A stretch of DNA of 61,718 nucleotides from the NCBI GenBank assembly GCA_023954375.1, contig JAMLIC010000006.1, forward strand, positions 210,972-272,689, read 5' to 3'. The translations under genes and the position numbers were made by a program. Each line of letters starts with the position of its first letter. The first letter of the stretch is position 1. Shown here one piece after another: positions 25,912-55,681 of this stretch. The notes under the pieces are model-generated. The model had not been told where the DNA came from, made no database searches, and saw only the letters and a list, made by a program, of their open reading frames with translations. This stretch comes from Planctomycetota bacterium. Lineage in GTDB: Bacteria > Planctomycetota > J058.

Positions 25912-26107
25912 GCTGCGTGAGACAATGAGCTTGTGGCGCGCCCTGGGGCGGGTGAGCAGAATTTTCTACTCCCATGGCGCCCGGAGGTTACTATTTGCCG
26001 CTCCGGGCTGGACCCGAACCTCTGTTCGGTCCAGCCCTGCACACATCTGCTGCATTCATCAAATGGGAGTGGTCCCGAGCGGGACCGCCGATCGGAGCTC
26101 TGAACGT
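25912..26107 (+). promoter_or_regulatory. low-GC structured leader/promoter region upstream of the EF-G paralog
   Basis: Markedly lower GC than its surroundings. Three hairpins, including a 14-bp stem gggctggacccgaac/gttcggtccagccc. Confidence 0.3.
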
Positions 26108-40663: not shown

Positions 40664-42067
40664 CTACGCGGCCTCGCTCACGGCGTCGAGCGCGGGCTCG
40701 GCCTTCTTCCGCGGGCGGCGGGCGCGCTTCGTCTTCACGCTGGCCGTCACGGGCGGCGCGTCCTCGCCCGCGGGCGCCTCCGGCGCCGGCGCCGGCTCGA
40801 CGGGGTTCAGCGCCGAGCGCACCTGGTCGCGTCCGTTGCGCTTGGCGGCGTAGAGGTGCTGGTCGGCCGCCTCGATGAACGCGCCGGCGTCCTTCATCGC
40901 GTCCGGGTCGAGCTCGGCCACGCCGAAGCTGGCCGTGACCGCGATCTCCGCCTCCCCCGCCTTCACCGGGGCCTGGCGGATCTTCTTACGCAGCCGCTCG
41001 GCCAGGGCCGCGGCGTCCTCGAGCGTGGTGTCCGGGGCGAGGATGATCAGCTCCTCGCCCCCGTAGCGGAACGCCTGGTCGTAGCCGCGGATCGCGCCGC
41101 GCACCCGCCGCGCCACCTCGGCCAGGACGGCGTCGCCGGCGACGTGGCCGTGGACGTCGTTGACGCGCTTGAAGTGGTCGACGTCGATGATGATCATCGA
41201 CAGCGGCGTCCCGAGCCGCCGCCGCTGCGCCATGAGCTGCTGCGCCATCTCCTGGAAGTGGCGCTTCGTGTAGAGCCCCGTCAGCCCGTCGACCACGGCG
41301 CGGTCGTAGAGGGCGGGCTTGCGGATCGCGAGCGCGATGTGCTTCGCCAGCCCCTCGAGCATGCGCGCCAGCTCGAGCGGGTCCGGCGCCGGGGTGCCCG
41401 CCGGCGGCGAGGCGAGGCGCACCTCGAGCGCGCCCATGACCTCGCCCTCGGCCACGAGCAGGGCGGCCGCGCGCAGGCCGCCGCGCGCCGGCTCGACCAC
41501 CGTGCGGCGCGCGTCGAGCGCGCGCCGCGCCTCGCGCGGCTCGAGCGCCAGGTCGCCCGGCGCGCTCACGCGCGTGCGCTCGCCCACGCGGTGCGCCACG
41601 GCGACGAGCGCGTCGCGCTCCGGCCCGTCGGCGAGGAAGATCACGATCTCGCGCGCGTCGAGGAGCCCGCCGAGCACGGCGAGCGCCCGCTCGAGGATCG
41701 GCTCGAGGCTCACGTCGTCGTTGGCGATCAGGGCCAGGTCGCGGATCGCCGAGAGCTGCTCGACCTGCCGCCGCAGCTGCGTGACCGTCTCGTGCTGCTG
41801 CTGCTCGCGCCGCTGGACGCGCCCCGAGTCGATCAGCGCGAACGCCCCGCCGCCCCGGCGCAGGTGGGCGAACGCCCGGCGCACGCGCGCCGCGTCGAGG
41901 GCGAAGGCGAAGGCGGTGATCGCCGTGGCCGCCCCGAGCGAGGCGAGCGCCGCCGTGACCGTGCGCCCGGCCACGTCGGGGGTCCAGCTGGCGTAGGTCG
42001 CCAGCCCCAGGAGCGCGACCGGGGCGGAGAGGGGGGCGAGGTGCTGGAGGCGAGGCCGGCGGAGCAT
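40664..42067 (-). CDS. membrane-bound diguanylate cyclase (TM, GAF-like and GGDEF domains)
   Basis: RYGGEE active-site motif, DGLTGLYTKRHF, and N-terminal TM helices. Confidence 0.85.
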   Translation of the reverse strand: MLRRPRLQHLAPLSAPVALLGLATYASWTPDVAGRTVTAALASLGAATAITAFAFALDAARVRRAFAHLRRGGGAFALIDSGRVQRREQQQHETVTQLRRQVEQLSAIRDLALIANDDVSLEPILERALAVLGGLLDAREIVIFLADGPERDALVAVAHRVGERTRVSAPGDLALEPREARRALDARRTVVEPARGGLRAAALLVAEGEVMGALEVRLASPPAGTPAPDPLELARMLEGLAKHIALAIRKPALYDRAVVDGLTGLYTKRHFQEMAQQLMAQRRRLGTPLSMIIIDVDHFKRVNDVHGHVAGDAVLAEVARRVRGAIRGYDQAFRYGGEELIILAPDTTLEDAAALAERLRKKIRQAPVKAGEAEIAVTASFGVAELDPDAMKDAGAFIEAADQHLYAAKRNGRDQVRSALNPVEPAPAPEAPAGEDAPPVTASVKTKRARRPRKKAEPALDAVSEAA

Positions 42068-42319
42068 GGCGAGGTCCCCTGTGCCCCTCTTCGGCTGAAG
42101 CGGCGCCGGACCTTGCGCCGGTGGCAGGGTCGACCGTGCGCCCGGGTCGACCGCCCTGGCATGCCACCCCGGCGGTTATCGGCCCGGGTGGAACTTACGC
42201 CGGGCACGGGCCGTGCACCGCCCCCCGCGCGAACAGCGGGGAAGGCCAGGAGCATCGGGCGTGATGCCAGGCGCGCGCAGCGGAGTTTCGGTGCGAGTTT
42301 CGGTGCGAAAGGAGCCCAC

Positions 42320-43154
42320 CTTGGGAGTCTTCGGAGTCGGCGCGGCGAGGATCGGCGTCGTGTGCCTCGCCGTCGCGGCGTTCGGCACGAGCGGCTGCTC
42401 GAGCCTGCGCCACAAGAGCAACGACGAGCTGTGGGCCGAGGGCGACGGCCACTTCAACCAGGGCCGCTACGGCGACGCCACCCCCTACTACGACGAGCTG
42501 ATCCGCCGCGACGAGGGCGGCACCCGCGCGCACCTCATGCGCGGCGTGGCCCGCGAGCGCACGGGCGACCACGGCGCCGCCCTCGAGGACTACGGCGCGG
42601 CCGGCAGCCGCGGCGAGGTCCGCGCGCTGTTCTACCGCGCCGACCTGAACCTGCGCCGCGGCGACCTCGCCTCGGCCGAGGTGGACCTGGGCGCCCTGCG
42701 CGACATGGGCCTCGGCGGGCGCGACACGGTCGTGCACCTGACGCTCCTGGGCACGCTGCGCCTCAAGCAGAAGCAGTACATGTTCGCCGCGCAGAACCTG
42801 GAGCGCGCCTGCGAGGCGTCGGCCTCCTACCGCGACCCCGGGATGATGCGGCACATCCGTGACGCGCACTACAACGCCGCGCAGGCCTACTACCACCTGG
42901 GCGACTTCGGCCGCGCCTACGACCACATGGTGCAGTTCGCCGGTGGCAGCCCGGGCGACGGGACGCGCACGTCGGAGTACCTCGACGGCCAGGACAGCTA
43001 CATGCTCGGCCTCCTCGCCTACCTCGCCGGCGACTTCGCGGCCGCCGACCACCACCTCGCCAACGCGGATCCGGACCTCGTGGCCCGGGCCGCCGACGTC
43101 CTCGACGACCCGTCTTTCGGCGCCGGCGCGCGCCGGGGAGGCAACCCCAAGTGA
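42320..43154 (+). CDS. TPR-repeat lipoprotein (first gene of the envelope-machine cluster)
   Basis: TTG start after an AAGGAG RBS. Lipobox FGTSGC. TPR-like helices. Confidence 0.5.
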
Positions 43155-44305
43155 AGCGGACCGCACTCACCACCGGCGGCGCGCTGGCGCTGCTCCTCTC
43201 CGCGCCCGGCGCCGCCTGGGCGCAGAGCCCGCCCCCCTTCGCCGACCGCGCCCCGGACCCGCGCGGCCAGCAGCAGCAGCGCGGTACGACCGCCGAGCTG
43301 GCGCCGCTGCCCAACTGGTCGATCAAGCAGGAGGTCCAGCGGCTCGACACGTCGATGCGCGAGTACAACTCGCTCATCAACTCGCTCTCGAGCGCCAGCG
43401 CCGAGCTCAAGGAGGAGCTGCAGCGCTACTCGCAGGACCCGCACAACGAGGTCCTGGCCTCCTCGCTCGACAACAAGATGGCCCACTACGCCAAGCGCGT
43501 CATGGCCGACTTCAACGGGATCATCGCCGACCAGGACGTGCTCTCGGCGAACTTCAACGACCTGCAGCGCAAGCTCGTCGTCTTCTCGCGGCACCTGGCC
43601 TCGCAGGCCGACGGCTTCCGCGGCAACCTCGACGGCTACCGCACCACGGCGCGCGACGTGGAGAAGCGGCTGACCGAGCTGGCCGTGCGGATCAAGGAGA
43701 ACCCCCCGGAGGACCCGAACGAGCTGCGGACCCTCAAGCGCGAGTTCTCGAACCAGTTCCGCCGCTACCAGCTCCAGATGCGCTACGTCAACGGCTACAG
43801 CCGCCGCTACCAGAGCTACCAGAACCTGCAGCGCAACGTCGAGCGCCTGGCGACCCTGTTCGTGACCCTGCACGAGAAGTTCAACGAGCTGATCGACAAC
43901 CTGCAGAACGAGCGGCAGTTCCTCCAGGACTCGGTGCGCCTGCAGGCCGACACGCTCAGGATCAAGCAGATGATGCGCGAGGGGATCGTCGGCTCGGAGC
44001 AGGCGATCGGCAACGTCGCCGACAAGCTGGCGACCCTCTACGAGAAGGTCGACGCGTTCGCGCAGGTGCAGGACCGGATCAGCACCGACCTCAACCGCTT
44101 CGTCGAGTCGCAGGGCGTGCTGACCGACATCATGGGCCGGATCGACAAGATCGGCCAGAGCGGCGGCCCGATCGGCGACATCGGCGCCGACATGGACAAG
44201 GCGATCGACGCCTTCTACGGGCGTCGCAGTGGCCTCGACCAGGGGCTGCTCGGCGACCAGGCGCAGGACGACATGATGGACTTCGGCCTGGGGGAGGACG
44301 AGTGA
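43151..44305 (+). CDS. secreted coiled-coil protein (Gln/Arg-rich)
   Basis: Signal peptide ALALLLSAPGAAWAQ. Long heptad-like helices. GTGA overlap with the upstream gene. Confidence 0.5.
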   Translation: MKRTALTTGGALALLLSAPGAAWAQSPPPFADRAPDPRGQQQQRGTTAELAPLPNWSIKQEVQRLDTSMREYNSLINSLSSASAELKEELQRYSQDPHNEVLASSLDNKMAHYAKRVMADFNGIIADQDVLSANFNDLQRKLVVFSRHLASQADGFRGNLDGYRTTARDVEKRLTELAVRIKENPPEDPNELRTLKREFSNQFRRYQLQMRYVNGYSRRYQSYQNLQRNVERLATLFVTLHEKFNELIDNLQNERQFLQDSVRLQADTLRIKQMMREGIVGSEQAIGNVADKLATLYEKVDAFAQVQDRISTDLNRFVESQGVLTDIMGRIDKIGQSGGPIGDIGADMDKAIDAFYGRRSGLDQGLLGDQAQDDMMDFGLGEDE

Positions 44306-45204
44306 TGAGCGACCACACCCTTCGTGCTCCCACCCTGACCCTGACCGCGCTCCTCCTCCTGGGCCCGGCCGCCCTGGCCCAGGAGCCGCTGCGGCCCAGC
44401 GACCCCCTGGCCGGCCCGCCCATCCGCGACATCGGCGGCTGGCTGGGCGAGGACGCGCCGCTGCCCGGCGCCCGGCCGGCGGCGCCCGCGCCGGCCGCGC
44501 CGCCGGCGCCCGCGGGCGGGGGCGCGGTCGGGGCCGAGGACCCGCTCGCCGCGCCCCCGGCCCCGGCGCCCGAGGACCCGGAGAAGGCCCGGCAGGAGGC
44601 CCGGCGCCGCGACCGGCAGATCAGCCGCAACTACCAGCAGGCGATCGAGATCTACGAGGACATGGACGCGCCCGACCACCAGATCGCGGCGCTCGACCGG
44701 CGGATCGCCAACAACGAGCGCCTGGTCGCCGACTACCGCCGCCGACTCGGCGAGGGCCAGCAGCAGCGGCGCAACATGCAGGTCGACCTGTTCAACCGCA
44801 CCTTCTTCCTCCGCCAGCAGCGCGAGCGCGGGCAGATCACCCAGGAGGTGTTCGACAAGCTCATCCGCCAGGAGGAGCGCAAGTACGAGGAGGACTCTGC
44901 CGGCCTGAAGGCGAACCTCGAGGCCTGGCACCGCGAGCTCAAGCAGGCCGAGGCGCGCCTCGAGTCGATGAAGGCGGAGCGGCGCATGCTCGAGGCGTCG
45001 CGGCCGCGGACGGCCGTGCGGCGCGGCCAGCAGCAGGGCGGCGCGCCCGTGCCGGCGCCCAAGCCGGGCGAGCGGCTGATCGGCACGCTCGAGGAGCGCC
45101 TGCGCCAGCTCGAGCGCTTCAACACGCGCAGCACCATGGAGGGGGTCCACCCCCGCGACATCGGCGTGGGCTCCGTCGAATCGGTCCAGCTGAAGAACGA
45201 CTAA
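44305..45204 (+). CDS. secreted protein with a Pro/Ala-rich linker and a coiled-coil C-terminus
   Basis: Signal peptide LTLTALLLLGPAALAQE. Overlaps the previous stop by 1 nt. Confidence 0.5.
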   Translation: MSDHTLRAPTLTLTALLLLGPAALAQEPLRPSDPLAGPPIRDIGGWLGEDAPLPGARPAAPAPAAPPAPAGGGAVGAEDPLAAPPAPAPEDPEKARQEARRRDRQISRNYQQAIEIYEDMDAPDHQIAALDRRIANNERLVADYRRRLGEGQQQRRNMQVDLFNRTFFLRQQRERGQITQEVFDKLIRQEERKYEEDSAGLKANLEAWHRELKQAEARLESMKAERRMLEASRPRTAVRRGQQQGGAPVPAPKPGERLIGTLEERLRQLERFNTRSTMEGVHPRDIGVGSVESVQLKND

Positions 45205-45434
45205 CGACCGTGGGCGGGAGCGCCGTCCGGGCCTGCCTGCCGTCCTGCTCCCGGACGTGCGGGCGGGCGACTCCACCCTGGACGGGCTCGCGCGCGCGGT
45301 GAAGGGGGGGCACCGAGGTGGCGCGGCGCCGGAGACGTCCGGCGCCGCGCCCGCCCGGGCGGGCGCGGCCCGCCGGGAGACCAAGACCACGGCCCGGCGG
45401 GCAGAGACGCCGGCCCGCGACGAGGTGAAGCGCC

Positions 45435-46019
45435 TTGATCTACCGGTTCCTCCAGGAAGGCGGCGTCTGGATGATCCCGATCCTCGGGGTCTCGGTGGTC
45501 GCCACGACGTTCGTCCTCGAGCGCGCCTGGTTCTGGTTCGTGCTCTGGCTGCGGCGCGACCTGCGCCTGCGCCGGCGGCTGCTGCGCGGCGAGGTCCCGT
45601 CCCCCGGGACGCGCACCGGCGACCCGCACGCGCTGGTGCTCCTCGACCTCGCCGTCCACCCCGCCGACCCCGACCTCGCCGTCGACCGCGCGCGCATGCT
45701 CGTGCGCGACAGCCGCAACCACCTCAAGGTCCTGGCGATCTGCTCCGGCCTCGGCTCGGCGCTGGGCCTCTTCGGCACGGTCGTCGGCATGAGCGACTCG
45801 TTCCGCGGCGTCGGCCTCTCGAACCCGGGCGCGATCGTCACCGGCCTGCAGACGGCGCTGAACACCACGGTGCTCGGCCTGATCGTCTACCTGACGGCCT
45901 ACGTGGCCCACGCGCTCTTCGCGCAGATGAGCACGAACCTCAGCCAGGACCTGGAGGAGGACCTCAACGAGGCGCGGCGCGCGATCGACGCGCGGCGCCG
46001 GGGGAGGGTGGCGGCGTGA
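45435..46019 (+). CDS. MotA/TolQ/ExbB-family proton channel
   Basis: Three TM helices with the TolQ-like segment GLGSALGLFGTVVGM. Confidence 0.75.
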   Translation: MIYRFLQEGGVWMIPILGVSVVATTFVLERAWFWFVLWLRRDLRLRRRLLRGEVPSPGTRTGDPHALVLLDLAVHPADPDLAVDRARMLVRDSRNHLKVLAICSGLGSALGLFGTVVGMSDSFRGVGLSNPGAIVTGLQTALNTTVLGLIVYLTAYVAHALFAQMSTNLSQDLEEDLNEARRAIDARRRGRVAA

Positions 46020-46459
46020 CCGACCCTCGCGACTCCCGCGCGATCCGCCTCGAGCCGGCGACCGACGAGGAGCCGGCGATGCTCATGACCTCCATGATCG
46101 ACGTGATCTTCATCGTGCTCGCGTTCTTCGTGTGCGTGAGCGAGGTGAAGAAGGGGCAGCTCGCGGTGGACGTGCCCGAGGTGCCGAGCGCCGACGCGTC
46201 CCCGGCCCCGAGCAGCCAGGAGCCGATCGTCGTCGAGGTGACGGGGGACGACCGCGTGTTCGTGTGCGGCGAGTCGGCGCGGACCGACGACGAGCTCACG
46301 CGCCTGATCGCCTACCAGGTCGAGCGGCTGGGCAAGGACGCGGCGGTGCACCTGTCGGGCGACCGGCAGGCCAAGAACGGGACCATGATGCGCGTGGTCA
46401 GCCACCTGTCGCGGGCCGGGCTCAAGCGCATCGAGTTCGCCGTGCAGGCGGGAGGCTAG
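46016..46459 (+). CDS. ExbD/TolR-family protein
   Basis: MIDVIFIVLAFFV TM helix plus a periplasmic domain. GTG at 46016 overlaps the MotA stop; the alternative ATG is at 46078. Confidence 0.7.
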   Translation: MTDPRDSRAIRLEPATDEEPAMLMTSMIDVIFIVLAFFVCVSEVKKGQLAVDVPEVPSADASPAPSSQEPIVVEVTGDDRVFVCGESARTDDELTRLIAYQVERLGKDAAVHLSGDRQAKNGTMMRVVSHLSRAGLKRIEFAVQAGG

Positions 46460-46461
46460 CG

Positions 46462-46628
46462 TGGTGCGCGACCGTTCGCCGGTGGAGACCGTCCTCACCT
46501 ACGCCACGTTCATGGCGCTGTCGCTGGCGCTGCACATCGTGGTGATCCTCGGCAACCGCCCGCTCGACCGGGCGCAGGCCGACCAGAGCCGGGCCGGGCA
46601 GGCCCAGGAGGCGGAGCTCGCCAAGTGA
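46462..46628 (+). CDS. 55-aa single-TM mini-protein between ExbD and the TonB-like gene
   Basis: GTG start. TM helix TVLTYATFMALSLALHIVVILG. The next gene overlaps its stop as GTGA. Confidence 0.25.
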
Positions 46629-47965
46629 GCGTGACCCGCGACAACGACCCCGTCGCGTACACGCTGCGGCTCGCCGTCTGCGTGACCGCCGCGATCGCCG
46701 TGCACCTGCTGGCGGTCTTCTCCTCCAGCCAGGAGGAGGAGGCCAAGGCGGAGCAGCAGCGGATCGCCGTCGTCCTCAAGGAGACGATGACCAAGGTCAA
46801 GGAGGAGATGGAGAAGCTCCTCCAGGAGGCGCAGGCCGAGCCGCCGCCGCCCGAGCCGGAGCCCGAGCCGGAGGAGCCCGAGCCGGAGGAGCCCGAGCCG
46901 CAGCAGGCCGAGCCGCCGCCGCCCGAGCCGCCCCCGCCGGCGCCGACCGCCCCCGAGCCCATGCCCGAGGCGCCGCAGGACCTCGCGCTGGCCGACGCGG
47001 ACGTGAGCGTGCTCGAGCTCGAGCCGCCGCCGCGCCCGCGTCGGCCCGAGCCGCTGCCGCAGGTCGAGCCCGTGCTCGAGCCGCCGAAGCCGGAGCCGCC
47101 GAAGCCGGAGCCGCCGAAGCCGGAGCCGCCGAAGCCGGAGCCGCCGAAGCCGGAGCCGCCGAAGCCGGAGCCGGTCCGTCCCGAGCCGAGGCCGGAGCCG
47201 GTCCGGCAGCCGCCGCCGCCCGAGCCGGTCCGTCCCGAGCCGAGGCCCGAGCCGGTCCGTCAGCCGCCGCCGCCCGAGCCGGTCCGTCCCGAGCCGAGGC
47301 CCGAGCCGGTCCGTCAGCCGCCGCCGCCGCCCGAGCCGGTCCGTACGCCGGCGCCGCCGGTGCCGCCCGAGATCGGCTCGGAGACGGTCGCCCAGCGCGA
47401 CGCGCGCCTGCACCAGACCATGCGCGAGCTGAGCGACTTCAACGAGTTCGCCACGACGTCGCGCGACGAGGTCAAGGGCAAGATCCCGGCGATCCTCTTC
47501 ACCAACGAGGACGAGGCCGAGTGGATGGCGCTGATCGCCTACTTCGACCTCCTGCCGATCGCCTACGCCAAGAGCGACCCGAGCTACTACGTCACGATCG
47601 ACGTCGCCCGCCGGCAGATGAACCACACCCGCGACTTCGAGTTCCTGCAGCAGCGCTACGGGCGCAACGGCATGCTCGTGCGCCAGCTCGGCACCATGCC
47701 GCAGTTCGTGGCCGCCGCGCGCGCGATCATGGCGCAGTTCTCGATCGCCCCCCACGACCTCACGATCCAGTTCCTCCTGCCGCGCCCGTTCGCGGCCTAC
47801 CTGAACTGGAAGGCGCTCAAGACCTGCCACGAGCTGCGCCTCGACCCGGCGACGGTGAAGGCGTGTCGCGGGCGCCTCGTCCGCGAGGGGACGAAGTGGG
47901 TGTGGCGGGTCGACGACCTGCTGCTCGAGGACGGGCGGACAACCCGCGTGGGGAGGGGCGGATGA
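46625..47965 (+). CDS. TolA/TonB-like membrane protein: N-terminal TM, long Pro-rich periplasmic spacer, and a C-terminal ~200-aa domain unrelated to TonB_C
   Basis: TM helix LAVCVTAAIAVHLLAVF. (PPKPE)x6 and (PVRPEPRPEPVRQPPPPE)x3 repeats. C-terminal domain of unknown family. Confidence 0.6.
   Translation: MSVTRDNDPVAYTLRLAVCVTAAIAVHLLAVFSSSQEEEAKAEQQRIAVVLKETMTKVKEEMEKLLQEAQAEPPPPEPEPEPEEPEPEEPEPQQAEPPPPEPPPPAPTAPEPMPEAPQDLALADADVSVLELEPPPRPRRPEPLPQVEPVLEPPKPEPPKPEPPKPEPPKPEPPKPEPPKPEPVRPEPRPEPVRQPPPPEPVRPEPRPEPVRQPPPPEPVRPEPRPEPVRQPPPPPEPVRTPAPPVPPEIGSETVAQRDARLHQTMRELSDFNEFATTSRDEVKGKIPAILFTNEDEAEWMALIAYFDLLPIAYAKSDPSYYVTIDVARRQMNHTRDFEFLQQRYGRNGMLVRQLGTMPQFVAAARAIMAQFSIAPHDLTIQFLLPRPFAAYLNWKALKTCHELRLDPATVKACRGRLVREGTKWVWRVDDLLLEDGRTTRVGRGG
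47081..47340 (+). repeat. coding tandem repeats: six 15-bp PPKPE units then three ~54-bp units
   Basis: Direct perfect nucleotide repeats (ccgccgaagccggag x6). Confidence 0.85.
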
Positions 47966-48092
47966 CCGTGGAGCGCCGGGAGCGACCCTTGCCCAGCCCG
48001 CAGGGCTCAAGTACCTTCCCCTGCACGCGTTGGGCTCACGCGTGCGTTCGGGGCGCGTTCGGGCGCGCCCGCCACCCTGGCCTGGAGGGCGA

Positions 48093-48888
48093 GATGACCT
48101 CGCGTCGCAGGACGCCTCGGTGCCTCGTGGTCGGCGCGCTCGCCGCGCTGGCCCTGCCCGCCGCGGCCGCCCCGGCCCTCGCGCAGGGCGAGGCGCCGCG
48201 CGGGACCGACGGCCACCTGGCCAAGGGCGACTACTTCTTCAAGGCGGGCTACTACCTCAAGGCGAGCGAGCACTACCGCCTGGCGCTCCTCGAGGACCCG
48301 GCCAGCCCCGGCAAGAAGCTCGCCTTCGGCCACGCGCTGTTCGCGATCGGCAACTACAGCTACGCGAGCTACGCGCTGCGCCGCGGCGTCGCGCAGCTCG
48401 ACGCGAGCGAGCCGCTCCGCCCGCAGCTCAAGGGACTCTTCCCCAGCGAGCGGGCGTTCACCCAGGCCCTGCGTGACCTGAAGCGCTACGTCACCTACAG
48501 CCCGCGCGACCCGGCGGGGCTCACCGTCCTCGGCTACGTGCTGTTCACGATCGAGGGCGAGGAGCGGCGCTGCCAGGACATGTTCAAGTACCTGAAGCGC
48601 CTCGACCCCAACGACCCCTTCGCCGACTACTTCCTGGCGCAGATCCGCCGCAAGGGGATCCCCGACGGCGACGACCCTGGCCCGCAGGCTGCATTGCCCG
48701 ACGTCGGCTCGGTCGACGAGCCGGACCCGGAGCCGGCGCCGCGGCCCGTCGCCGCGCCGCCGCCTCCGCCGCCCCCTCCGCCCCCGCCCCCGACGCCCGC
48801 CCTGCGCGAGGTGCTCGGCGAGCCCGAGCGCGCGCGCGAGCGCGCGGAGGGCGAGTGGCCCATGCCCGTGCCGGCCCCGAGCCGCTGA
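48093..48888 (+). CDS. secreted TPR-like protein with a C-terminal poly-Pro tail
   Basis: Signal peptide ALAALALPAAAAPALAQ. TPR-like helices. PPPPPPPPPPPP near the C-terminus. Confidence 0.5.
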
Positions 48889-48905
48889 GGAGAGAGACGC
48901 CCGCC

Positions 48906-49502
48906 ATGTGGATCGTGCGAAACACGCTGCGCGCCACGCTGAGCCTCCGCGGCCTCGGGGTGGCGATCCCGTCGGGTCAGGAGTTCGACCTCGACGGGCT
49001 CGGCCGCGACCGCGCCGAGGCGAGCAACCAGGTGCAGGTCGCCTTCGAGGAGGGCTACCTGGAGAACGTCTACAAGGCGCCCCGCGAGGGCGGCATCACC
49101 CACACGAGCGTGGGGGTCGCCATGCCCATGGGGCGCGGCGTGTCGGGCGAGGAGCTCGACGCGTTCAAGCGCAGCTTCATGAGCGAGCTGCGCGAGCAGC
49201 TCCCGCAGCTGGCCAACGTGGCCAACGCCTCGCACATCGAGCAGATGCGCCAGGCGATCTCGCAGGACGTCCAGGCCCTCGTGGGCGAGTTCAAGCTCAT
49301 GCGCGACCGCTTCGAGTTTGCCAAGGGCCGCGTCCGGGAGGACCCGACCCTCTCCGACGCCGAGGTCAAGGCCCGGCTGGCGTTCCTCGAGGAGCAGGAG
49401 CGCGAGTTGCTGCGCAACTTCGAGACGGTCGGGCGACGGATCGAGCAGGAGCAGGAGGACGGCGACGTCATGGGCAAGGCCGACCTGCTCTCGAACCTCT
49501 AA
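48906..49502 (+). CDS. hypothetical cytoplasmic protein (198 aa)
   Basis: ATG at 48906. Charged helical composition. Confidence 0.4.
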   Translation: MWIVRNTLRATLSLRGLGVAIPSGQEFDLDGLGRDRAEASNQVQVAFEEGYLENVYKAPREGGITHTSVGVAMPMGRGVSGEELDAFKRSFMSELREQLPQLANVANASHIEQMRQAISQDVQALVGEFKLMRDRFEFAKGRVREDPTLSDAEVKARLAFLEEQERELLRNFETVGRRIEQEQEDGDVMGKADLLSNL

Positions 49503-49532
49503 CCCCGCGGGGACGAACGGAGTCACCCAGAC

Positions 49533-50663
49533 ATGGCCAAGGCAGTCGACATCGGCACCTGCTTCATCGTGGGGGCCCGCCTCGAGCAGGGCAAGGAGGT
49601 GTTCCAGATCGAGCGGGACGCCTTCTTCTCCATGCCGCGCGAGGACTTCGCCGAGGAGATGCTCCACGACGCGGGCGCCAAGTTCGTCATCCGCGGCAAC
49701 GAGCTCTACGTCGTCGGCGAGGACGCGCTCAAGTACTGCATGATCACCGGCAAGCAGGAGTTCTACCGCCGGCCCATGCAGAAGGGCGTCCTCAACCCGG
49801 GCGAGGAGGAGGCGATCCCGCTGCTCGAGCGCCTGATCGAGGGCATCATCGGCAAGCCCGAGCACCCGGGCGAGGTGATCGCCGCCACGATCCCCGCCGC
49901 GCCGCTCGACGCCAACCTCGACGTGACCTTCCACAAGATCGTCGTCGAGCGCTTCCTGAGGAAGCTCGGCTACGACGTGCGGATCCTCAACGAGGCGCTG
50001 GCGATCATCTACGCCGAGTGCCCGCAGGTCGAGGACAACGGCACGAAGGCGCCGTTCTCGGGCGTGGGCGTCTCCTTCGGCGCCGGCATGACGAACCTCG
50101 TCGTCTCGTGGCGCGCCAAGAAGCTGTTCGAGATCTCGGTCGCGCGCGGCGGCGACTGGATCGACCAGAGCGTCTCCAAGGTGCGCAACGTCCCCGTGGG
50201 GAAGGTGACGCACGAGAAGGAGAAGAACCTCGACCTGCGCCGCGTCGACCCGCGCAACGCCCTGCACCTGGGCCTCGAGATCTACTACGACGAGCTGATC
50301 CGGCACGTCCTGCGCGAGTTCCGGGCGCACTTCAAGACGAACCAGACGACGGTCACGAGCCCGCTCGACGTGGTCGTCGCCGGCGGGACCTCGTCGGTGC
50401 CCGGGTTCATCGACCTGTTCAAGCGCATCCTCGAGGAGGAGGGCGCGCCGATCCCGGTCAACGACGTGCGCATGGCCAAGGACCCGCTGCGCACGGTCGC
50501 CAAGGGCGCGCTGGTCGCCGCGGTCTCCATGGAGAAGAAGAAGAAGTCGGACAAGCCGGGCGCGCCGGCGGCGCCGCCGGCCCAGGCGGCGCAGGCCGCG
50601 CCGGCGCCGGCCGCGCCGCCGACGCCCAGCGCGGACGTGATCGACATCGAGGCCGGGGTCTAG
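49533..50663 (+). CDS. actin-like ATPase (ASKHA superfamily; MreB/ParM/actin-type)
   Basis: Phosphate-1 AVDIGTCFIV, phosphate-2 GVSFGAGMTNLVV, adenosine VVAGGTSSVPGF, connect-2 DPLRTVAKGAL. Ala/Pro-rich C-terminal tail. Confidence 0.7.
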   Translation: MAKAVDIGTCFIVGARLEQGKEVFQIERDAFFSMPREDFAEEMLHDAGAKFVIRGNELYVVGEDALKYCMITGKQEFYRRPMQKGVLNPGEEEAIPLLERLIEGIIGKPEHPGEVIAATIPAAPLDANLDVTFHKIVVERFLRKLGYDVRILNEALAIIYAECPQVEDNGTKAPFSGVGVSFGAGMTNLVVSWRAKKLFEISVARGGDWIDQSVSKVRNVPVGKVTHEKEKNLDLRRVDPRNALHLGLEIYYDELIRHVLREFRAHFKTNQTTVTSPLDVVVAGGTSSVPGFIDLFKRILEEEGAPIPVNDVRMAKDPLRTVAKGALVAAVSMEKKKKSDKPGAPAAPPAQAAQAAPAPAAPPTPSADVIDIEAGV

Positions 50664-50694
50664 GCCTCCCAGGGCGCGGGGCGGAAGGGGCTGC

Positions 50695-52755
50695 ATGAGC
50701 GCGAACGGCGTGGAGCGCGAGGACGGCGGGCTCGAGGTCATCATCGAGCCCGACGTCGTCCCCCGCGGGACCGTCGACCTGCGGGCGATCATCGGCGGCG
50801 CGCGGGCGGACGGCCGCCCGCGCGAGACGCACACGGCGCGCGGCCGGCGCGAGGCGGTCCTCGCGCAGGTCGCGGCCGCGCACGTCGCGCCGCCGCCGGC
50901 GCTCGTCGCCGCCGCGCCCGTCGTCGCCGCCGCCGTCGCGCCGGCCGTCGCCGCCGAGCCGGAGCCGGAGCCGGCCGAGCCGGAGCCGGCCGAGCCGGCC
51001 CCCGAGGAGGGCCTCCTGGCCGAGGCCCTCCCCGACCTCCCGCCCGAGCCCGCGTCGCCGACGCTCATGGCCCTCGAGGCGGCCGCCAAGGCGCCGATCC
51101 CGCCGCGCCCGGACGCGGCCCTGGCGGCCGACGCCCCCGACCCCCACCCGGAGCCCGAGGCGCCGCCGGTCAGCCTGGGCGAGGTCTCGGCGTTCAGCAC
51201 GCTCGCCAAGCTCCTGGCGCAGCTCCTGGCCCTGCTCCTGTGCCTGATCGCCCTCTACCTGCACCTCATGGGCCTGGCGCCCTGGCAGGAGCAGCGCGGG
51301 GCGGAGCCCGCCGCGATGGCCCCGGCCGCGCCGAGCGGCGAGGCCCCGCGGGTCGACACGGTCCCCGTCACGCCGCCGCCGGCGGCCGAGCCCGAGCCGT
51401 CGCCCGAGCCGGCGCCCGAGCCCGAGCCGGCGCCTCCCGCCGACCCCGCGCCGGAGCCCGAGGTCGAGGCGGCCGCGCCGCCGGCGCCCTCGGCGCCCTC
51501 GCTCGAGGACCTGCGCGCGCTCCTGGCCGAGGCCGAGACCGGCGCCGAGCTGGGCGTCGAGGAGGACGCGCCCGGGCTCCTCGCGCGGATCGAGGGCCTG
51601 CGGGCCCGGGCGGCGCGGCTGATCGACAGGGGCGAGCTCGACGAGGCGGCCGAGGTCCTGCGCGAGCTGATCGGCCTGGCCCCGGAGGACGGCGACGCCT
51701 ACTTCCGCCTGGGCTACGTCCACCACCGCAAGGGCGACCTGGACGAGGCGGCCGCCCGCTACCGCGGCGCCGCCGAGCGCTCGCCGCGCGACCCGCGGCC
51801 CCTGAACAACCTGGGCCTCATCCAGACCGGGCGCGGCGAGCGCGACGCCGCGAAGGCGACCTACGCCAGGGCGCTCGACCTCGCGCCCGACGACCCGGAC
51901 GTGCTGTCGAACCTCGCCGCCCTGCTCGAGGCCAACGCGCCGACCCAGGCCCATCCGCTCTACGAGAAGGCGCTCGAGCGCGACCCGCGCCACGCGCCCG
52001 CCCGCCTGGGCCGCGCCCGCGTGCGCGCCGCGGTCGGCGACCGCCAGGGCGCCCGCGCCGACTACCAGGCGCTGGTCGACCAGGGCGGCCCGCACGCGCA
52101 CCGCGCGCTCGACGGCCTGGGCGTCCTGGCCCGGATCGAGGGCGATGCGCGCGCCGCCGCCGCCCTCCACCGCCAGGCGCTCGAGCGCACGCCCGCCTTC
52201 GCCGAGGCGCGCGTGAACCTCGGGGTCGCGCTCCTCGACCTCGGGCGCGACGACGAGGCCCGCAAGGAGCTCGACGATGCGGTCAAGGCGCTGCCGAGGA
52301 GCCCGCGCGCGTGGCAGGCGCTGGGCGTGGCGCGCTCGCGCCTGGGCATGCTCTACGAGGCCAAGGAGGCCTACGAGGCGGCGATCAAGCTCGACGGCGA
52401 CGACTGGGCCACCCGCTTCGACTACGCGCTCTGCGCCGAGCAGTTCGGCAACATCCTCTTCGCCATGCGCGAGTACGAGCGCTCGATCGCGCTCAACCCG
52501 ACCGCCTGGCAGCCCTACGCCAACCTCGCTCGCCTCTACGTGCGCGGCGACCAGCGGCAGAAGGCGATCGAGCTCCTCACGCGCGGGCTCGAGGTGATGC
52601 CCCGTCAGCCCGACCTGACCTACGCGCTGGCGCACGCGCTGGCGCTCGAGGGGCGCGACGCCGAGGCGCGCGCCCGGCTGCGCCAGTTCCTGGCCGTGGC
52701 GCCGGCGAGCGACCCGCGGGTCGAGGTCGTGCGGCGCGGGCTGGGCGGGTCGTGA
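50695..52755 (+). CDS. TM protein with a Pro/Ala/Glu-rich linker and multiple C-terminal TPR repeats
   Basis: TM helix LLAQLLALLLCLIALYLHLMGL. At least six TPR-like units in the C-terminal half. Confidence 0.6.
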   Translation: MSANGVEREDGGLEVIIEPDVVPRGTVDLRAIIGGARADGRPRETHTARGRREAVLAQVAAAHVAPPPALVAAAPVVAAAVAPAVAAEPEPEPAEPEPAEPAPEEGLLAEALPDLPPEPASPTLMALEAAAKAPIPPRPDAALAADAPDPHPEPEAPPVSLGEVSAFSTLAKLLAQLLALLLCLIALYLHLMGLAPWQEQRGAEPAAMAPAAPSGEAPRVDTVPVTPPPAAEPEPSPEPAPEPEPAPPADPAPEPEVEAAAPPAPSAPSLEDLRALLAEAETGAELGVEEDAPGLLARIEGLRARAARLIDRGELDEAAEVLRELIGLAPEDGDAYFRLGYVHHRKGDLDEAAARYRGAAERSPRDPRPLNNLGLIQTGRGERDAAKATYARALDLAPDDPDVLSNLAALLEANAPTQAHPLYEKALERDPRHAPARLGRARVRAAVGDRQGARADYQALVDQGGPHAHRALDGLGVLARIEGDARAAAALHRQALERTPAFAEARVNLGVALLDLGRDDEARKELDDAVKALPRSPRAWQALGVARSRLGMLYEAKEAYEAAIKLDGDDWATRFDYALCAEQFGNILFAMREYERSIALNPTAWQPYANLARLYVRGDQRQKAIELLTRGLEVMPRQPDLTYALAHALALEGRDAEARARLRQFLAVAPASDPRVEVVRRGLGGS

Positions 52756-52758
52756 GGC

Positions 52759-52833
52759 TCACCACGGAGGACACGGAGGACACGGAGGAAGACGCTCTCC
52801 GTGTCCTCCGTGTCCTCCGTGGTGAATGGTGAC
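52759..52833. terminator. ~28-bp perfect-stem palindrome containing three ggaggacac direct repeats per arm; candidate intrinsic terminator/attenuator between the cluster and the histidine kinase gene
   Basis: ccacggaggacacggaggacacggagga / tccgtgtcctccgtgtcctccgtgg. No U-tract follows it. Confidence 0.45.
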
Positions 52834-52853
52834 GGACGGGGAGAGGGGGGCGG

Positions 52854-54665
52854 ATGACGATCGGCCACATCCCGCCGCCCGGCCGGGCGCAGGCGAGCCT
52901 GCTCGCCCGCGTCGTCGCGCTCATCGGCCTGGCCTTCTTCGTCATCGAGCTGGCCGTCCTCGGCGTCTTCACCGCCGGCTACTGGGTGTGGCTCACCGGG
53001 CACCGCGAACAGGCGCTCGGCGCCCACGCGTCGCGCGTGCGCGAGCACGTGCGCCAGGCGCTGCTCGAGCGCGAGAACCCGCACGCGGGCGTCGACGTGG
53101 ACGCGGAGCTCCTGCAGGCCCTGCGCTCGGGGCAGGGACAGGCGCCGGGTGAGGGGAGCCCGCTGCCGGCCAACCTCGAGCCCGACGCGCCGATCGACGC
53201 CTGGGTGCTCACGCGCTCGGGCGAGGTGCTGCGCTTCGCCGGCGGACAGCTCACGGCCGCCGACTCGGCCGCGTGGCCGGGCGCGCGCTGGCCGGAGGGC
53301 GTCCGGCGCCGGATCGAGGAGCTGTTCCTCGGCCGCGACGTCGCCGCCTTCTTCCAGGTCTCGCTCCCGGTCGACGCCCTCGTGCCGCGGACCATGGCGC
53401 GGGCCGAGCCGATCGTCACCGGCGGCCAGGGGCAGCCCGACGCCGTCCTCTGGCTCGACGCGTCGCTCGCCGACCTCCACCGGCAGGTCGCCACCTACGG
53501 CCTCGTCGCCTTCGGCAGCGGGGCCGTGGCGCTGTTCATCACGGCCATGGTCGTCCTGCACTACCTGCGCCGCGCGCTCCTCCTGCCGCTCTCGCGCCTG
53601 ATCGCGGCCGACAACGCCGCGCGGCGCGGCGACGAGGAGCACGCCGTGATCGACGAGGGGGACATCCCGGACGACGAGGTGGGCGCGATCATGCGCAGCC
53701 GCAACCACCTGTTCCTCGCCATGGTGAAGGGCCGCCGCGACCTCGACGAGAAGAACGCGATCCTCGCCCGGCAGGGCGAGGAGCTGCGCGCCTGGGGCGA
53801 GCAGCTCGAGCGGCTCGTCGAGCAGAAGACGTCGGCGCTCCTGCGCGCGAAGGACCGGCTGCACCGGACGGAGAAGCTGGCGGCGCTCGGGCGCCTCGCC
53901 GCGAACGTGGCCCACGAGATCAACAACCCGCTGGCGACCATCGCCGGCTACGCCGAGGAGGCGCGCGACGCGCTCGACGGCGCCGACCCCGAGCTGGCGC
54001 AGGCGCTGAAGACGATCGAGGACCAGGCGTTCCGCTGCAAGGAGATCCTCAAGCGCCTGCTGGGCCTGGCGCGCAGCGACCAGCTCGAGCTCGAGGAGGT
54101 GGCCCTGCGCCGGCTCGCCCGCGAGTCGGTCCACCTGGCCGAGGCGGCCGCCCGGCGGCGCGGGGTCACGGTGAGGGTCGACCCGGCGCCGTCCGGCGAG
54201 GACCCGGACGGGCCGACGGTGCGCTCGGACGCGGCCTCGCTCCAGCAGGCGATCCTGAACCTCGTCGAGAACGCGATCGACGCCGCCGCCGAGCGCAAGG
54301 GCGCGGCCCCCTGGGTGCGCGTGGCCGTGCGCGAGGCCGGCGCGGAGGTGCGCCTCGTCGTCACCGACAGCGGGCCCGGGGTGCCGCCGGCCCTGCGGGC
54401 GCGGGTGTTCGACCCCTTCTACACGACCAAGCCCGTCGGCCGCGGCACGGGGCTCGGCCTGGCGATCAGCCAGTCGCTCGTCGAGCGCCTCGGCGGGCGG
54501 GTCACGCTCGAGGAGGACCCGTCCGGCGGGGCGGCCTTCGTGATCCACCTGCCGCGGCGGCCGCGCGAGTCGGGGCGGGCGCCGCGGGCCGCGGGTGACG
54601 CCAGCGACCTGCTCGAGGCGCAGCTGCGCGTGGCCGGCGCGGGCGCCGCGGATCCGGACCTGTGA
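52854..54665 (+). CDS. sensor histidine kinase (two TM helices, HisKA, HATPase_c)
   Basis: H-box HEINNPLATI. N/G1/G2 boxes NLVENAID, DSGPGV, GTGLGLAIS. Confidence 0.85.
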   Translation: MTIGHIPPPGRAQASLLARVVALIGLAFFVIELAVLGVFTAGYWVWLTGHREQALGAHASRVREHVRQALLERENPHAGVDVDAELLQALRSGQGQAPGEGSPLPANLEPDAPIDAWVLTRSGEVLRFAGGQLTAADSAAWPGARWPEGVRRRIEELFLGRDVAAFFQVSLPVDALVPRTMARAEPIVTGGQGQPDAVLWLDASLADLHRQVATYGLVAFGSGAVALFITAMVVLHYLRRALLLPLSRLIAADNAARRGDEEHAVIDEGDIPDDEVGAIMRSRNHLFLAMVKGRRDLDEKNAILARQGEELRAWGEQLERLVEQKTSALLRAKDRLHRTEKLAALGRLAANVAHEINNPLATIAGYAEEARDALDGADPELAQALKTIEDQAFRCKEILKRLLGLARSDQLELEEVALRRLARESVHLAEAAARRRGVTVRVDPAPSGEDPDGPTVRSDAASLQQAILNLVENAIDAAAERKGAAPWVRVAVREAGAEVRLVVTDSGPGVPPALRARVFDPFYTTKPVGRGTGLGLAISQSLVERLGGRVTLEEDPSGGAAFVIHLPRRPRESGRAPRAAGDASDLLEAQLRVAGAGAADPDL

Positions 54666-55681
54666 GCCCGCGCGCCTGCAGCGCGGCGGCCGTCGGCGCG
54701 GCGGTCCTCGGCGCGGCGGTGGGGGCCGTCGGCCTCCTGCCGGCCACGGCGCAGGAGCGCCGGGTCGCCGACGAGCCGGCCCGGCCGAAGGAGCTCGTCA
54801 GCTTCCTCACGGGGGACCCCGACGACCTCGAGGTCGCGCCGGCCGGCCCGGCGCTCCTGCTCATGGGCGGCGGGCGCGACGTCGACCACGCCTTCGCCTG
54901 GTTCCGCGACCAGGCGCGCGGCGGCGACATCGTCGTCCTGCGCACCTCCGGCGCCGACGGCTACAACGCCTACCTCTACCAGCAGATCGGCGGCGTCGAC
55001 AGCGTCGAGACCCTCCTCGTGACCACGCGGGCGCTCGCCGACAGCCCCTGGGTGGCGCGCCGCATCGAGGAGGCCGAGGGCGTGTTCATCGCCGGCGGCG
55101 ACCAGGCGACCTACGTGCGCGCCTGGAAGGGGACGGCGCTGGAGCGGGCCCTGCACGCCGCCTGGCGGCGCGGGGCGGCGCTCGGCGGGACGAGCGCCGG
55201 CGCGGCGATCCTGGGGCAGTTCAGCTACGCGGCGCTGCACGGCTCGCTCACCTCGGGCGCGGCGCTGCGCGACCCCTTCACGCGCGACCTGACGCTCGAG
55301 CGCGAGTTCCTGCGCCTGTCGTTCCTCGAGGGGGCCGTGGTCGACACCCACTTCGGCCGGCGCGACCGCGAGGGGCGCCTGCTCGCGTTCCTCGCCCGGC
55401 TGATGGCCGACGGCTGGCACGAGCGCCCGCTGGGGATCGGCCTCGACGAGGAGACGGCCCTGGCGATCGGCCGCGGCGGCAAGGCGCGCGTGTTCGGCAA
55501 GGGCGCGGTGACGCTCTATCGCCCCCACGGCCCGCCCGCGGTGTGCGAGCCCGGGCGCGCCCTGCGCCTCGAGGGGGTCGGCGCGTGGACGCTCCGGCGC
55601 AACGACACGCTCGACCTCCCTGCGGGGCCGGGCGGTCCGCCGCCGCGGCGTGTGGCGGCCGCCGACGGCGCGGTCCGTTAG
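54662..55681 (+). CDS. secreted peptidase S51 / cyanophycinase-like protein
   Basis: GGDQATY...GTSAGAAILG Ser-nucleophile region. Signal peptide. GTG overlapping the kinase stop. Confidence 0.6.
   Translation: MSPRACSAAAVGAAVLGAAVGAVGLLPATAQERRVADEPARPKELVSFLTGDPDDLEVAPAGPALLLMGGGRDVDHAFAWFRDQARGGDIVVLRTSGADGYNAYLYQQIGGVDSVETLLVTTRALADSPWVARRIEEAEGVFIAGGDQATYVRAWKGTALERALHAAWRRGAALGGTSAGAAILGQFSYAALHGSLTSGAALRDPFTRDLTLEREFLRLSFLEGAVVDTHFGRRDREGRLLAFLARLMADGWHERPLGIGLDEETALAIGRGGKARVFGKGAVTLYRPHGPPAVCEPGRALRLEGVGAWTLRRNDTLDLPAGPGGPPPRRVAAADGAVR

Follow-up and report, generated by a model that had tools for sequence, protein, structure and literature searches.

A Planctomycetota-specific clade of volactin-family actin-like proteins, encoded with a candidate adaptor and a membrane tetratricopeptide repeat protein within an ExbB/ExbD-type envelope gene array

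What does an actin-like protein do when its gene lies among genes for a proton channel and other parts of the cell envelope? This question is raised by a 61,718-nucleotide (nt) stretch of contig JAMLIC010000006.1 (assembly GCA_023954375.1, positions 210,972 to 272,689 of the forward strand) from the metagenome-assembled genome of an uncultured Planctomycetota bacterium, which is referred to below, at its full length, as the window. The gene in question is the following.

49533..50663, + strand: volactin-family actin-like ATPase of 376 amino acids (open reading frame [ORF], Pfam PF25216, AlphaFold2 model, and family-wide motifs)

An earlier note on this DNA had described the product as a divergent bacterial actin homolog embedded in a motor cluster, which is neither MreB nor FtsA and may polymerize to position or power the adjacent envelope complex. 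Its sequence places the protein among the volactin-family actin-like ATPases, in a clade specific to Planctomycetota. With a probability of roughly 0.6, we consider it part of an ATP-dependent, membrane-tethered filament module that organizes an envelope complex driven by the proton-motive force (pmf); its polymerization, its contacts, and its role are what we infer from the evidence below.

Family assignment of the actin-like protein

The protein matches the Pfam family Volactin (PF25216) with an E value of 2.5e-70 and a score of 238 bits against a cutoff of 35, and the match covers residues 1 to 330 and positions 1 to 321 of the 321-position profile. The founding member of PF25216 is volactin (VolA, HVO_2015) of Haloferax volcanii. 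The filaments of HVO_2015 are dynamic and extend across the cytoplasm, their tips in contact with the membrane, and the protein is required for cells to change from rod to disk in time (PMC10869688). A homology search returned 381 homologs at E values of ≤1e-5; the best 120 of these 381 all come from uncultured Planctomycetota, with identities from 94% down to 41%, and all 120 carry PF25216. One Planctomycetota homolog has already been named "disk-shape morphogenesis protein volactin" by NCBI. Membership in a defined family means that the protein is not an orphan; both family and fold are already known, and databases already label such proteins. The description as a divergent bacterial actin homolog thus holds for the fold and the motifs, while the family, Volactin PF25216, had been defined already and was overlooked.

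The other actin-like families were rejected by their own models. MreB/Mbl (PF06723) scores 18.4 bits against a cutoff of 27; PilM_2 (PF11104) scores 20.8 against 27 (E = 2e-4), and the NCBIfam pilM model (TIGR01175) scores 12 against 133; salactin scores 13.5 against 27.1 in Pfam (PF25229) and 17.9 against 400 in NCBIfam (NF053533); MamK (NF040964) scores 27.4 against 400; and BeeR (NF053558) scores 19.2 against 530. The MamK, BeeR, and salactin matches are each limited to the C-terminal 60 to 80 residues. FtsA was rejected on its family cutoff, and the test for a 1C-type subdomain insertion told against PilM and FtsA alike; the Pfam families of Hsp70, ROK, and FGGY proteins give no match even at an E value of ≤1. 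The profiles agree with the earlier judgment, drawn from context, that the protein is neither MreB nor FtsA. A sequence search of the PDB found no close relative, the best single-sequence match being MreB (E = 0.11) and the best profile match being EutJ (E = 0.012).

The reading frame is sound. It has the coordinates first given for it and an ATG start, with the Shine-Dalgarno-like sequence ACGGAG about 12 nt 5' of this start, and its G+C fraction is 0.99 at the third codon position versus 0.41 at the second, which is the coding signature of a genome of approximately 75% G+C. The motifs previously quoted for the protein are all in place, namely, AVDIGT at residues 4 to 9, GAGMTN at 183 to 188, AGGTSSVPGF at 283 to 292, and DPLRTVAKGAL at 317 to 327, and the fifth actin signature, connect-1, is RILNEALAI at residues 150 to 158. 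The five motifs (phosphate-1, connect-1, phosphate-2, adenosine, and connect-2) align column for column with those of haloarchaeal, Archaeoglobaceae, and other bacterial members, and the forms KGxDxGT, NE[AG], G.G.SFG[AG]GM[TV]N, GGT..P.GF, and PL..VA.G.L.AA are kept from Planctomycetota to haloarchaea. The phosphate-2 loop reads SFGAGMTN, and its Ser181 is invariant in the whole volactin family, including the haloarchaea. A loss of ATP-binding residues or a placement inside Hsp70 or a sugar kinase family, which had been named as the outcomes that would speak against an actin homolog, was in neither case found.

Predicted fold and C-terminal tail

Structure prediction, proposed earlier as a check, returned a canonical four-subdomain actin fold. 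The AlphaFold2 model, built on 56 homologs, has a mean predicted local distance difference test score (pLDDT) of 90 and a predicted template modeling score (pTM) of 0.85, with residues 351 to 376 disordered, and its secondary-structure elements follow one another as in MreB and actin (IA-IB-IA-IIA-IIB-IIA-IA). In a Foldseek search of the PDB, MreB/Mbl, MamK, and BeeR came out on top, followed by actin, and the top matches have E values of about 1e-14, target TM scores of 0.66 to 0.71, and identities of 14 to 18%. A second structure comparison placed BeeR first (27.3), followed by MreB (25.8), crenactin (25.4), and the nucleotide-binding domain of BiP (24.4), with FtsA (22.9), PilM (20.6), ParM (18.6), and sugar kinases (approximately 17) further down. 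The fold matches include complexes, such as MreB-RodZ (2wus) and PilM with a PilN peptide (2ych and 5eou).

C-terminal to the globular core (residues 1 to 340) lie the basic segment EKKKKSDK, then a disordered Ala/Pro linker, and finally the peptide DVIDIEAGV-COOH. The Ala/Pro-rich tail to which attention had been drawn, PAAPPAQAAQAAPAPAAPP, corresponds to residues 346 to 364. Within the tail as a whole (residues 341 to 376; window positions 50553 to 50663), the basic S-x-EKKK stretch directly after the core is conserved, and a regular-expression count found an acidic C-terminal peptide of the [IV][DE][IV]E..V type in 45 of 115 full-length homologs, in forms such as [LP]PD[VI][IV]D[IV]EAGV-COOH and DIEIETEI; a few remoter members have related endings, for example, VDVETGF, most of which the expression missed. 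The layout resembles that of FtsZ, in which a flexible linker joins a polymerizing core to a docking peptide at the end of the protein.

Distribution and phylogeny

Relatives are encoded at 502 loci in a scan that took one genome per species; the loci are numbered here from L001. Loci L001 to L031 belong to Planctomycetota, with 46 to 97% identity to the window protein, and from L032 onward, at 36 to 40% identity, the loci belong to Halobacteria, Archaeoglobaceae, and Thermoplasmatota and to scattered bacteria (Elusimicrobia, Nitrospirae/Magnetobacteriaceae, Desulfobacterales, and Patescibacteria). Neither the listed homologs nor the scanned loci include a cultured or named planctomycete. In a neighbor-joining tree of 80 family members, HVO_2015 not being among them, the Planctomycetota proteins form their own clade, apart from the archaeal and mixed-bacterial clades. 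Judged by its sequence, the window protein is a member of the Volactin family that is not an orthologue of the Haloferax protein and belongs to a paralogous or sister subfamily. In Planctomycetota, where little is understood of the machinery of cell division and shape, the volactin family has a deep bacterial branch that is strongly conserved.

Adaptor and membrane protein genes flanking the actin gene

The actin gene is the middle one of a conserved three-gene core, together with the genes for a candidate adaptor and for a membrane tetratricopeptide repeat (TPR) protein that carries a unique cytoplasmic peptide.

48906..49502, + strand: adaptor or partner protein of 198 amino acids, starting 17 nt after the preceding stop codon, with the ribosome-binding site GGAGAGAG
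50695..52755, + strand: bitopic inner-membrane TPR protein of 686 amino acids, recognized by TPR families, starting 31 nt after the actin stop codon

The gaps among the four genes around the actin gene are 17, 30, and 31 nt, and each of these genes has a ribosome-binding site. Of the 31 Planctomycetota loci, 27 have the adaptor gene directly 5' of the actin gene, so that the adaptor, on which the earlier note is silent, is the truly constant neighbor. The adaptor is 100% identical to a protein annotated as hypothetical (locus tag M9894_09485), and it is longer, with about 272 amino acids, in a subclade labeled Brocadiia and Planctomycetia. An alignment of 37 homologs revealed an N-terminal domain of about 57 amino acids rich in invariant positions (W2, N6, D28-L29-D30, and VAFEEGYL at 45 to 52), which is followed by a variable low-complexity linker, a coiled coil, and two conserved C-terminal parts, the helix LSxAEvKARLAFLEEQE..NFE..G and the extreme tail GDVMxKADLLSNL-COOH. 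The adaptor has no match among Pfam, NCBIfam, and PHROG families, and its profile, run against the PDB, retrieved nothing but amphipathic helices of the apolipoprotein kind, which reflects composition; among 1.84 billion cluster representatives, the profile matched just 138. A repeat search near the actin-adaptor pair found GC-rich chance matches only and no iteron- or centromere-like repeats. At one Planctomycetota locus without the usual adaptor, the product of the upstream gene (L026:5251-5979) combines a transmembrane helix and a coiled coil with the acidic C terminus ..EEIEDMFEQL.. and may be an alternative, membrane-anchored adaptor resembling the archaeal ones described below.

The TPR membrane protein carries the motif LEVIIEPDVVPRGTVDLR at its N terminus, and a disordered linker joins this motif to a single transmembrane helix; a second linker, rich in Pro, Ala, and Glu, leads to about ten TPR repeats. 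The presence of a single hydrophobic helix and the lack of a signal peptide suggest a cytoplasmic N terminus and a TPR domain that would be periplasmic. The orthologs encoded directly 3' of the actin gene all share the N-terminal peptide, with the consensus LE[IV]I[IV]EPDVVPRGT[VF]DLR, and in a six-frame scan of 161 loci, the motif E[PEA][DG][VIA].P.[GD][TKSI][VFL]D was found at that position only, in 13 loci. Such a conserved short peptide on a flexible membrane tether would be the expected docking site for a cytoplasmic partner, by analogy with RodZ-MreB and PilN-PilM, which use the same docking logic.

Partner genes in other lineages and on viral contigs

In archaea and other bacteria, the gene directly 5' of the volactin gene likewise encodes a partner, whose N-terminal part varies. 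In Halobacteria and Archaeoglobaceae, the partner is a multi-pass membrane protein (for example, L060:6940-7875, L066:6941-7846, and L035:7248-7997) with an acidic cytoplasmic tail containing the motif ..S.STVDDQTAKLxEL.. or ..DVTKALKSME... The Haloferax counterpart of this archaeal partner is probably HVO_2016, a "conserved hypothetical" protein that shows higher abundance together with volactin in some proteomic comparisons (PMC10869688, supplement), and it could be the membrane anchor for the reported filament tips. In the partners from Elusimicrobia, Nitrospirae, and Patescibacteria (L032:7346-7951, L036:7420-7947, and L073:4559-5029), the N terminus looks by eye like a winged-helix DNA-binding domain, which suggests a ParR-like DNA adaptor in these bacteria. 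An acidic amphipathic C-terminal helix motif is common to all the non-Planctomycetota upstream partners. A hidden Markov model (HMM) of their tails (TVDDQTAKLKEL, DVTKALKSME, and IDKTVKLLNEI) was searched against 462 six-frame ORFs and failed to pick out the window adaptor; for Planctomycetota, this result does not support homologous tails, and the claim is limited to a shared architecture.

Relatives of the pair are also found on DNA predicted to be viral. Weaker matches of the adaptor profile include a phage-like contig, on which the match lies directly 5' of a volactin-like gene. IMG/VR holds 513 predicted viral loci with relatives at 33 to 38% identity, many of them on contigs of 50 to 500 kb, and in 13 of 80 fetched loci the adaptor HMM matches an ORF shortly upstream of the actin gene, mostly directly adjacent to it. 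Most of the other fetched loci encode upstream a protein of about 200 amino acids with a similar N terminus, an [FY][IV]P motif, and the C-terminal helix ..DA..AL[KR]A[LM][RK]K; an hhalign comparison of the two adaptor groups aligned their N-terminal domains with marginal significance (E = 1.9e-4; probability, 47%). Two huge phages in GenBank carry relatives, LR745208.1 (485 kb) at 337426-338391 and LR756511.1 (595 kb) at 548798-549799, and the plasmid matches are to haloarchaeal megaplasmids only. Neither the actin nor the adaptor, whether from the window or from the viral loci, belongs to a PHROG family, BFVD has no close viral relative, and the flanks of the viral loci have few phage-type PHROG matches. 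The viral assignment is provisional for this reason and rests on the IMG/VR predictions, the few flank matches, and the two huge-phage records. The frequency of actin-adaptor pairs on predicted viral contigs, together with their presence in huge phages, suggests a widespread, undescribed cytoskeletal module in phage biology.

Envelope gene array around the actin gene

The three-gene core lies within 13 co-directional genes that extend from 42213 to 55681. Synteny was assessed by tblastn of each window protein against 80 genome loci, and the genes outside the core include the following.

42213..43154, + strand: TPR lipoprotein of 313 amino acids as listed, with the lipobox ..FGTSGC (TPR_16 and TPR_2; syntenic in 7 loci)
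43151..44305, + strand: secreted coiled-coil protein of 384 amino acids with the signal peptide ..LLSAPGAAWA/Q (weak coiled-coil-type matches only; syntenic in 7 loci at 41 to 66% identity)
44305..45204, + strand: secreted coiled-coil protein of 299 amino acids with a signal peptide (weak coiled-coil-type matches only; syntenic in 7 loci)
45465..46019, + strand: MotA/TolQ/ExbB-family proton-channel protein, start approximate (MotA_ExbB, 55.8 bits against a cutoff of 23; syntenic in 7 loci)
46016..46459, + strand: ExbD/TolR-family protein of 147 amino acids that keeps the transmembrane Asp (Pfam ExbD, 63.3 bits against a cutoff of 25)
46625..47965, + strand: protein of 446 amino acids with TonB/TolA-like architecture (N-terminal transmembrane helix and PEPKPEP/PEPVRP repeats; syntenic in 11 loci)
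48094..48888, + strand: secreted TPR-like protein of 264 amino acids with a signal peptide and a poly-Pro C terminus (weak TPR_19; syntenic in 19 Planctomycetota loci at 30 to 92% identity)
52854..54665, + strand: membrane sensor histidine kinase of 603 amino acids (HisKA and HATPase_c; closes the syntenic block, following the gene of the TPR membrane protein in 13 Planctomycetota loci)
54662-55681, + strand: S51 peptidase (last of the 13 co-directional genes)

The true start of the TPR lipoprotein is probably internal to the listed frame. The motor cluster of the earlier note is real, as the MotA/ExbB-family and ExbD/TolR-family genes lie 3.1 to 4.1 kb upstream of the actin gene on the same strand. 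The GTG start of the ExbD gene overlaps the ExbB stop codon, and the membrane Asp of ExbD lies within ..TSMIDVIFIVLAFF.. / ..SMIDVIFIVLAFF... With ExbB/TolQ and ExbD/TolR domains and this Asp, the pair has the features by which members of the TonB-ExbB-ExbD/Tol-Pal group are recognized. At the level of individual systems, the NCBIfam ExbD and TolR models are below their cutoffs for the 46016..46459 protein, the best NCBIfam model for the ExbB-type protein is TolQ with 37 bits against a cutoff of 221, and all Tol/TonB equivalog models are far below their cutoffs; genes for TolB and OmpA-like (Pal) proteins were not found in the cluster. Models of the Agl-Glt system gave no Agl match, and GltE reached 69 bits against 225, a generic TPR match. 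In the TonB-like protein, PEPKPEP and PEPVRPEPRPEPVRQPPPP repeats form long runs, and the C-terminal domain behind them, about 200 amino acids in length, is conserved. The strand opposite this gene (46625-47965) has a spurious ORF of 503 amino acids rich in Arg and Leu.

The order from the TPR lipoprotein to the histidine kinase is kept in all 7 of the loci that are long enough (L007, L010, L011, L012, L014, L016, and L029), which belong to one subclade and in which actin identity goes down to 55%; on shorter contigs, the proximal part of the array is seen. The L029 copy of the TPR membrane protein was found only through inspection of ORFs. In every syntenic locus, the actin is better conserved than any other protein of the cluster, for example, with 79% identity versus 41 to 66% for the others in L007 and 55% versus 27 to 43% in L029, a pattern that would be expected of a polymer with many constrained surfaces. 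A promoter and terminator scan of 42000-55800 predicted nothing, which is weak evidence at 75% G+C and fits long transcription units.

In the window, the actin gene is chromosomal and lies among murC-murB, gltB, fusA, and rtcB. The murC-murB gene (3373-5808, - strand) is a single ORF of 811 amino acids in which MurC-type Mur ligase domains are fused to MurB (FAD_binding_4 and MurB_C), so that the organism encodes enzymes of peptidoglycan precursor synthesis. The RtcB RNA ligase gene (21160-24228, - strand) contains an intein, with the RtcB profile matching in two stretches (535 bits) and an Intein_splicing match. The G+C fraction falls to 0.66 at 26001-28000, versus approximately 0.75 elsewhere, which coincides with the EF-G gene (25974-28226) and is probably due to the codon choice of a gene expressed at a high level and not to foreign DNA.

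Proposed function and alternative explanations

In the mechanism that we propose, the actin-like protein would bind ATP and assemble into dynamic cytoplasmic filaments, as its family, its fold, and its extreme sequence conservation lead us to infer. The upstream 198-amino-acid adaptor would regulate the filament or link it to its target via the conserved C-terminal helix and tail, and the cytoplasmic N-terminal peptide of the TPR membrane protein would tether the filament system to the inner membrane and link it to the periplasm. The module would serve a pmf-driven, ExbB/ExbD/TonB-like trans-envelope assembly with periplasmic TPR and coiled-coil parts, under a sensor kinase. Since the module lies inside a conserved co-directional envelope array, the filaments probably position, scaffold, or organize the trans-envelope complex and do not power it. 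The earlier suggestion of a filament that polymerizes to position or power the envelope complex is plausible on the sequence evidence; a power role is unlikely because the energizing parts are the ExbB/ExbD proton channel proteins, and position or scaffold is the better reading. The process served may be envelope remodeling, shape, surface movement, or division; described members of Planctomycetota divide without FtsZ.

A more ambitious proposal, offered tentatively and doubtful as a whole, is that the actin, the adaptor, and the TPR protein are structural parts of a pmf-driven trans-envelope machine in which the filament would act as a track or scaffold for remodeling, movement, or division, and that volactin-type actins are everywhere two-gene modules of an actin and a C-terminal-helix adaptor, the N-terminal domain of which would set the cargo (the membrane in haloarchaea and possibly DNA in some bacteria).

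Several points weigh against an envelope-organizing filament. In the structural register adopted here, from which the HMMER alignment to MreB is one residue off, Ser181 occupies the site of an Asp in MreB, actin, ParM, and Hsp70; because the Ser is invariant family-wide, it is a family trait and not decay. The TonB-like protein has no Pfam or NCBIfam match, and TonB_C and TolA were not detected in it. In the Brocadiia-labeled subclade and in L030, the envelope cluster is absent beside the actin gene; the neighbors in L015, L017 to L023, and L030 are unrelated genes, for RNase D, a membrane protein resembling LPG synthase, and malate dehydrogenase. The link may therefore be lineage specific or a mere gene neighborhood. 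A single-sequence model of the actin core fused through a Gly-Ser linker to the C-terminal 50 residues of the adaptor was unusable (pLDDT, 39; pTM, 0.28). To our knowledge, experimental study of the volactin family is confined to one haloarchaeon. In addition, the viral and huge-phage actin-adaptor pairs may mean that the ancestral job was cargo or DNA positioning rather than envelope work.

Best placed among the alternatives, and in our estimate unlikely, is a present-day function of this last kind, i.e., ParM/ParR-like positioning of cargo or DNA with mobile-element ancestry, in which the adaptor N-terminal domain would carry the cargo and the envelope genes would be unrelated neighbors. It would account for the two-gene pair, and not the envelope cluster, being the constant unit, for the homologous or similarly built adaptors that precede volactin-like genes on phage-like and IMG/VR contigs, and for the relatives in huge phages, and it is consistent with the hhalign match between adaptor N-terminal domains (E = 1.9e-4) and with what looks by eye like a winged helix in the Elusimicrobia, Nitrospirae, and Patescibacteria partners. 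However, inheritance of the clade appears to be vertical, with strong conservation across the phylum, and the tight packing with the TPR membrane protein and the unique cytoplasmic motif of the latter favor a membrane target. A ParM/Alp type II partition system in particular was rejected on the chromosomal context, the lack of a detected DNA-binding domain or family in the window adaptor, and the lack of iteron- or centromere-like repeats near the pair, although the N-terminal domain of the adaptor, which fits no family, might still bind DNA.

There is a smaller chance that the protein does not polymerize and is instead a platform, like PilM or a monomeric FtsA, which clamps the peptide of the downstream bitopic protein and nucleates the envelope complex. 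The gene order mirrors pilM-pilN, in which an actin-fold gene is followed by one for a bitopic protein with a cytoplasmic peptide; the PilM-PilN complexes 2ych and 5eou are among the structural matches; and to the weak PilM_2 match (E = 2e-4) can be added the many homologs with precomputed PF11104 matches.

A replacement of MreB as an elongasome organizer that guides peptidoglycan synthesis is very improbable. MreB is among the closest solved folds, with the MreB-RodZ complex 2wus among the matches, the MurC-MurB fusion indicates that peptidoglycan precursors are made, and the TPR membrane protein could act in a RodZ-like manner. Against this stand the MreB score of 18.4 bits versus 27, the absence of mreC, mreD, rodA, pbp2, and rodZ from the 13 genes at 42213-55681 and from the rest of the window, and the lack of an N-terminal amphipathic helix in a protein that begins MAKAVDIGT; moreover, Haloferax volactin behaves unlike MreB (PMC10869688). 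An ASKHA enzyme or chaperone (Hsp70-like, EutJ-like, or a sugar kinase) with no cytoskeletal role is hardly credible, given the lack of Hsp70, ROK, and FGGY matches at E values of ≤1 and of a substrate-binding domain, the filament formers at the top of both structure comparisons, and a family that includes a demonstrated filament former.

Comparison with known systems

A literature search found no description of the Planctomycetota volactin clade, the adaptor, the peptide-bearing TPR protein, the embedding among ExbB and ExbD genes, or the phage-like modules. The publication that names both volactin and planctomycetes treats them separately and concerns the eukaryote-like actin of "Candidatus Uabimicrobium." The closest characterized protein is Haloferax volactin, which shares with the window actin the Pfam family, the five motifs, including the SFG[AG]GM[TV]N phosphate-2 loop, and a directly upstream, same-strand partner with a helical acidic tail. 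However, the haloarchaeal volactins are only 36 to 40% identical to the window actin and form a separate clade, and the window host is bacterial and diderm; the haloarchaeal partner is a multi-pass membrane protein, whereas that of the window is a soluble protein of 198 amino acids; and the disordered Ala/Pro tail with its acidic peptide, the downstream TPR membrane protein, and the ExbB/ExbD cluster distinguish the Planctomycetota clade. The disk-shape role in Haloferax cannot be transferred to the planctomycete actin.

Two other non-MreB actins can be compared. BeeR is a MamK-like actin specific to Verrucomicrobiota; its disordered extension is N-terminal, whereas that of the window actin is C-terminal and ends in a conserved peptide. 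Saltatorellin is a MamK-like, non-MreB actin of Saltatorellus ferox, an FtsZ-less relative of Planctomycetes, which formed filaments in heterologous expression and is described as branching next to MamK (bioRxiv 10.1101/817700). The window actin fails the model of MamK, the neighbor of saltatorellin, and the published primers give saltatorellin the termini MTDITTD... and ...YWEQLK, unlike the MAKAVDIGT and ..IDIEAGV of the window actin; judged from these termini alone, identity of the two proteins is unlikely.

MreB-RodZ has the same four-subdomain fold and a similar proposed logic, in which a filament is coupled to the periplasm through a bitopic protein, but the window actin has neither mreCD, rodA, or pbp2 as neighbors nor a membrane-binding N-terminal helix, and the helix-turn-helix domain of RodZ contrasts with the short peptide motif of the window membrane partner. 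PilM-PilN has the same succession of genes, first for an actin-fold protein and then for a bitopic protein whose cytoplasmic N terminus holds a conserved peptide; the subdomain layout of the window actin is MreB-like, its scores are below the PilM cutoffs, and pilO, pilP, and pilQ are absent nearby. With ParM-ParR, Alp7A-Alp7R, and crenactin-arcadin-2, the window shares the two-gene layout of an actin and an adaptor. Adaptors of the ParR, Alp7R, and arcadin-2 types bind the hydrophobic groove of the actin via a C-terminal helix, and the window adaptor is most conserved at its C-terminal helix and tail; as with these systems, relatives of the window actin also occur on phage-like DNA.

The array as a whole resembles the Agl-Glt gliding machinery of Myxococcus with MreB and Tol-Pal with CpoB, which have similar parts, i.e., a TolQ/TolR-type channel, a proline-rich spanning protein, TPR and coiled-coil proteins, and an actin-like filament. 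If the link to ExbB and ExbD is functional, the window would have, side by side, the genes for the cytoskeleton and for the proton motor of one trans-envelope machine, an arrangement of which we know no other case. In Myxococcus gliding, the coupling of cytoskeleton and motor had to be inferred genetically, and mreB lies outside the motor cluster, whereas the window actin gene lies inside it.

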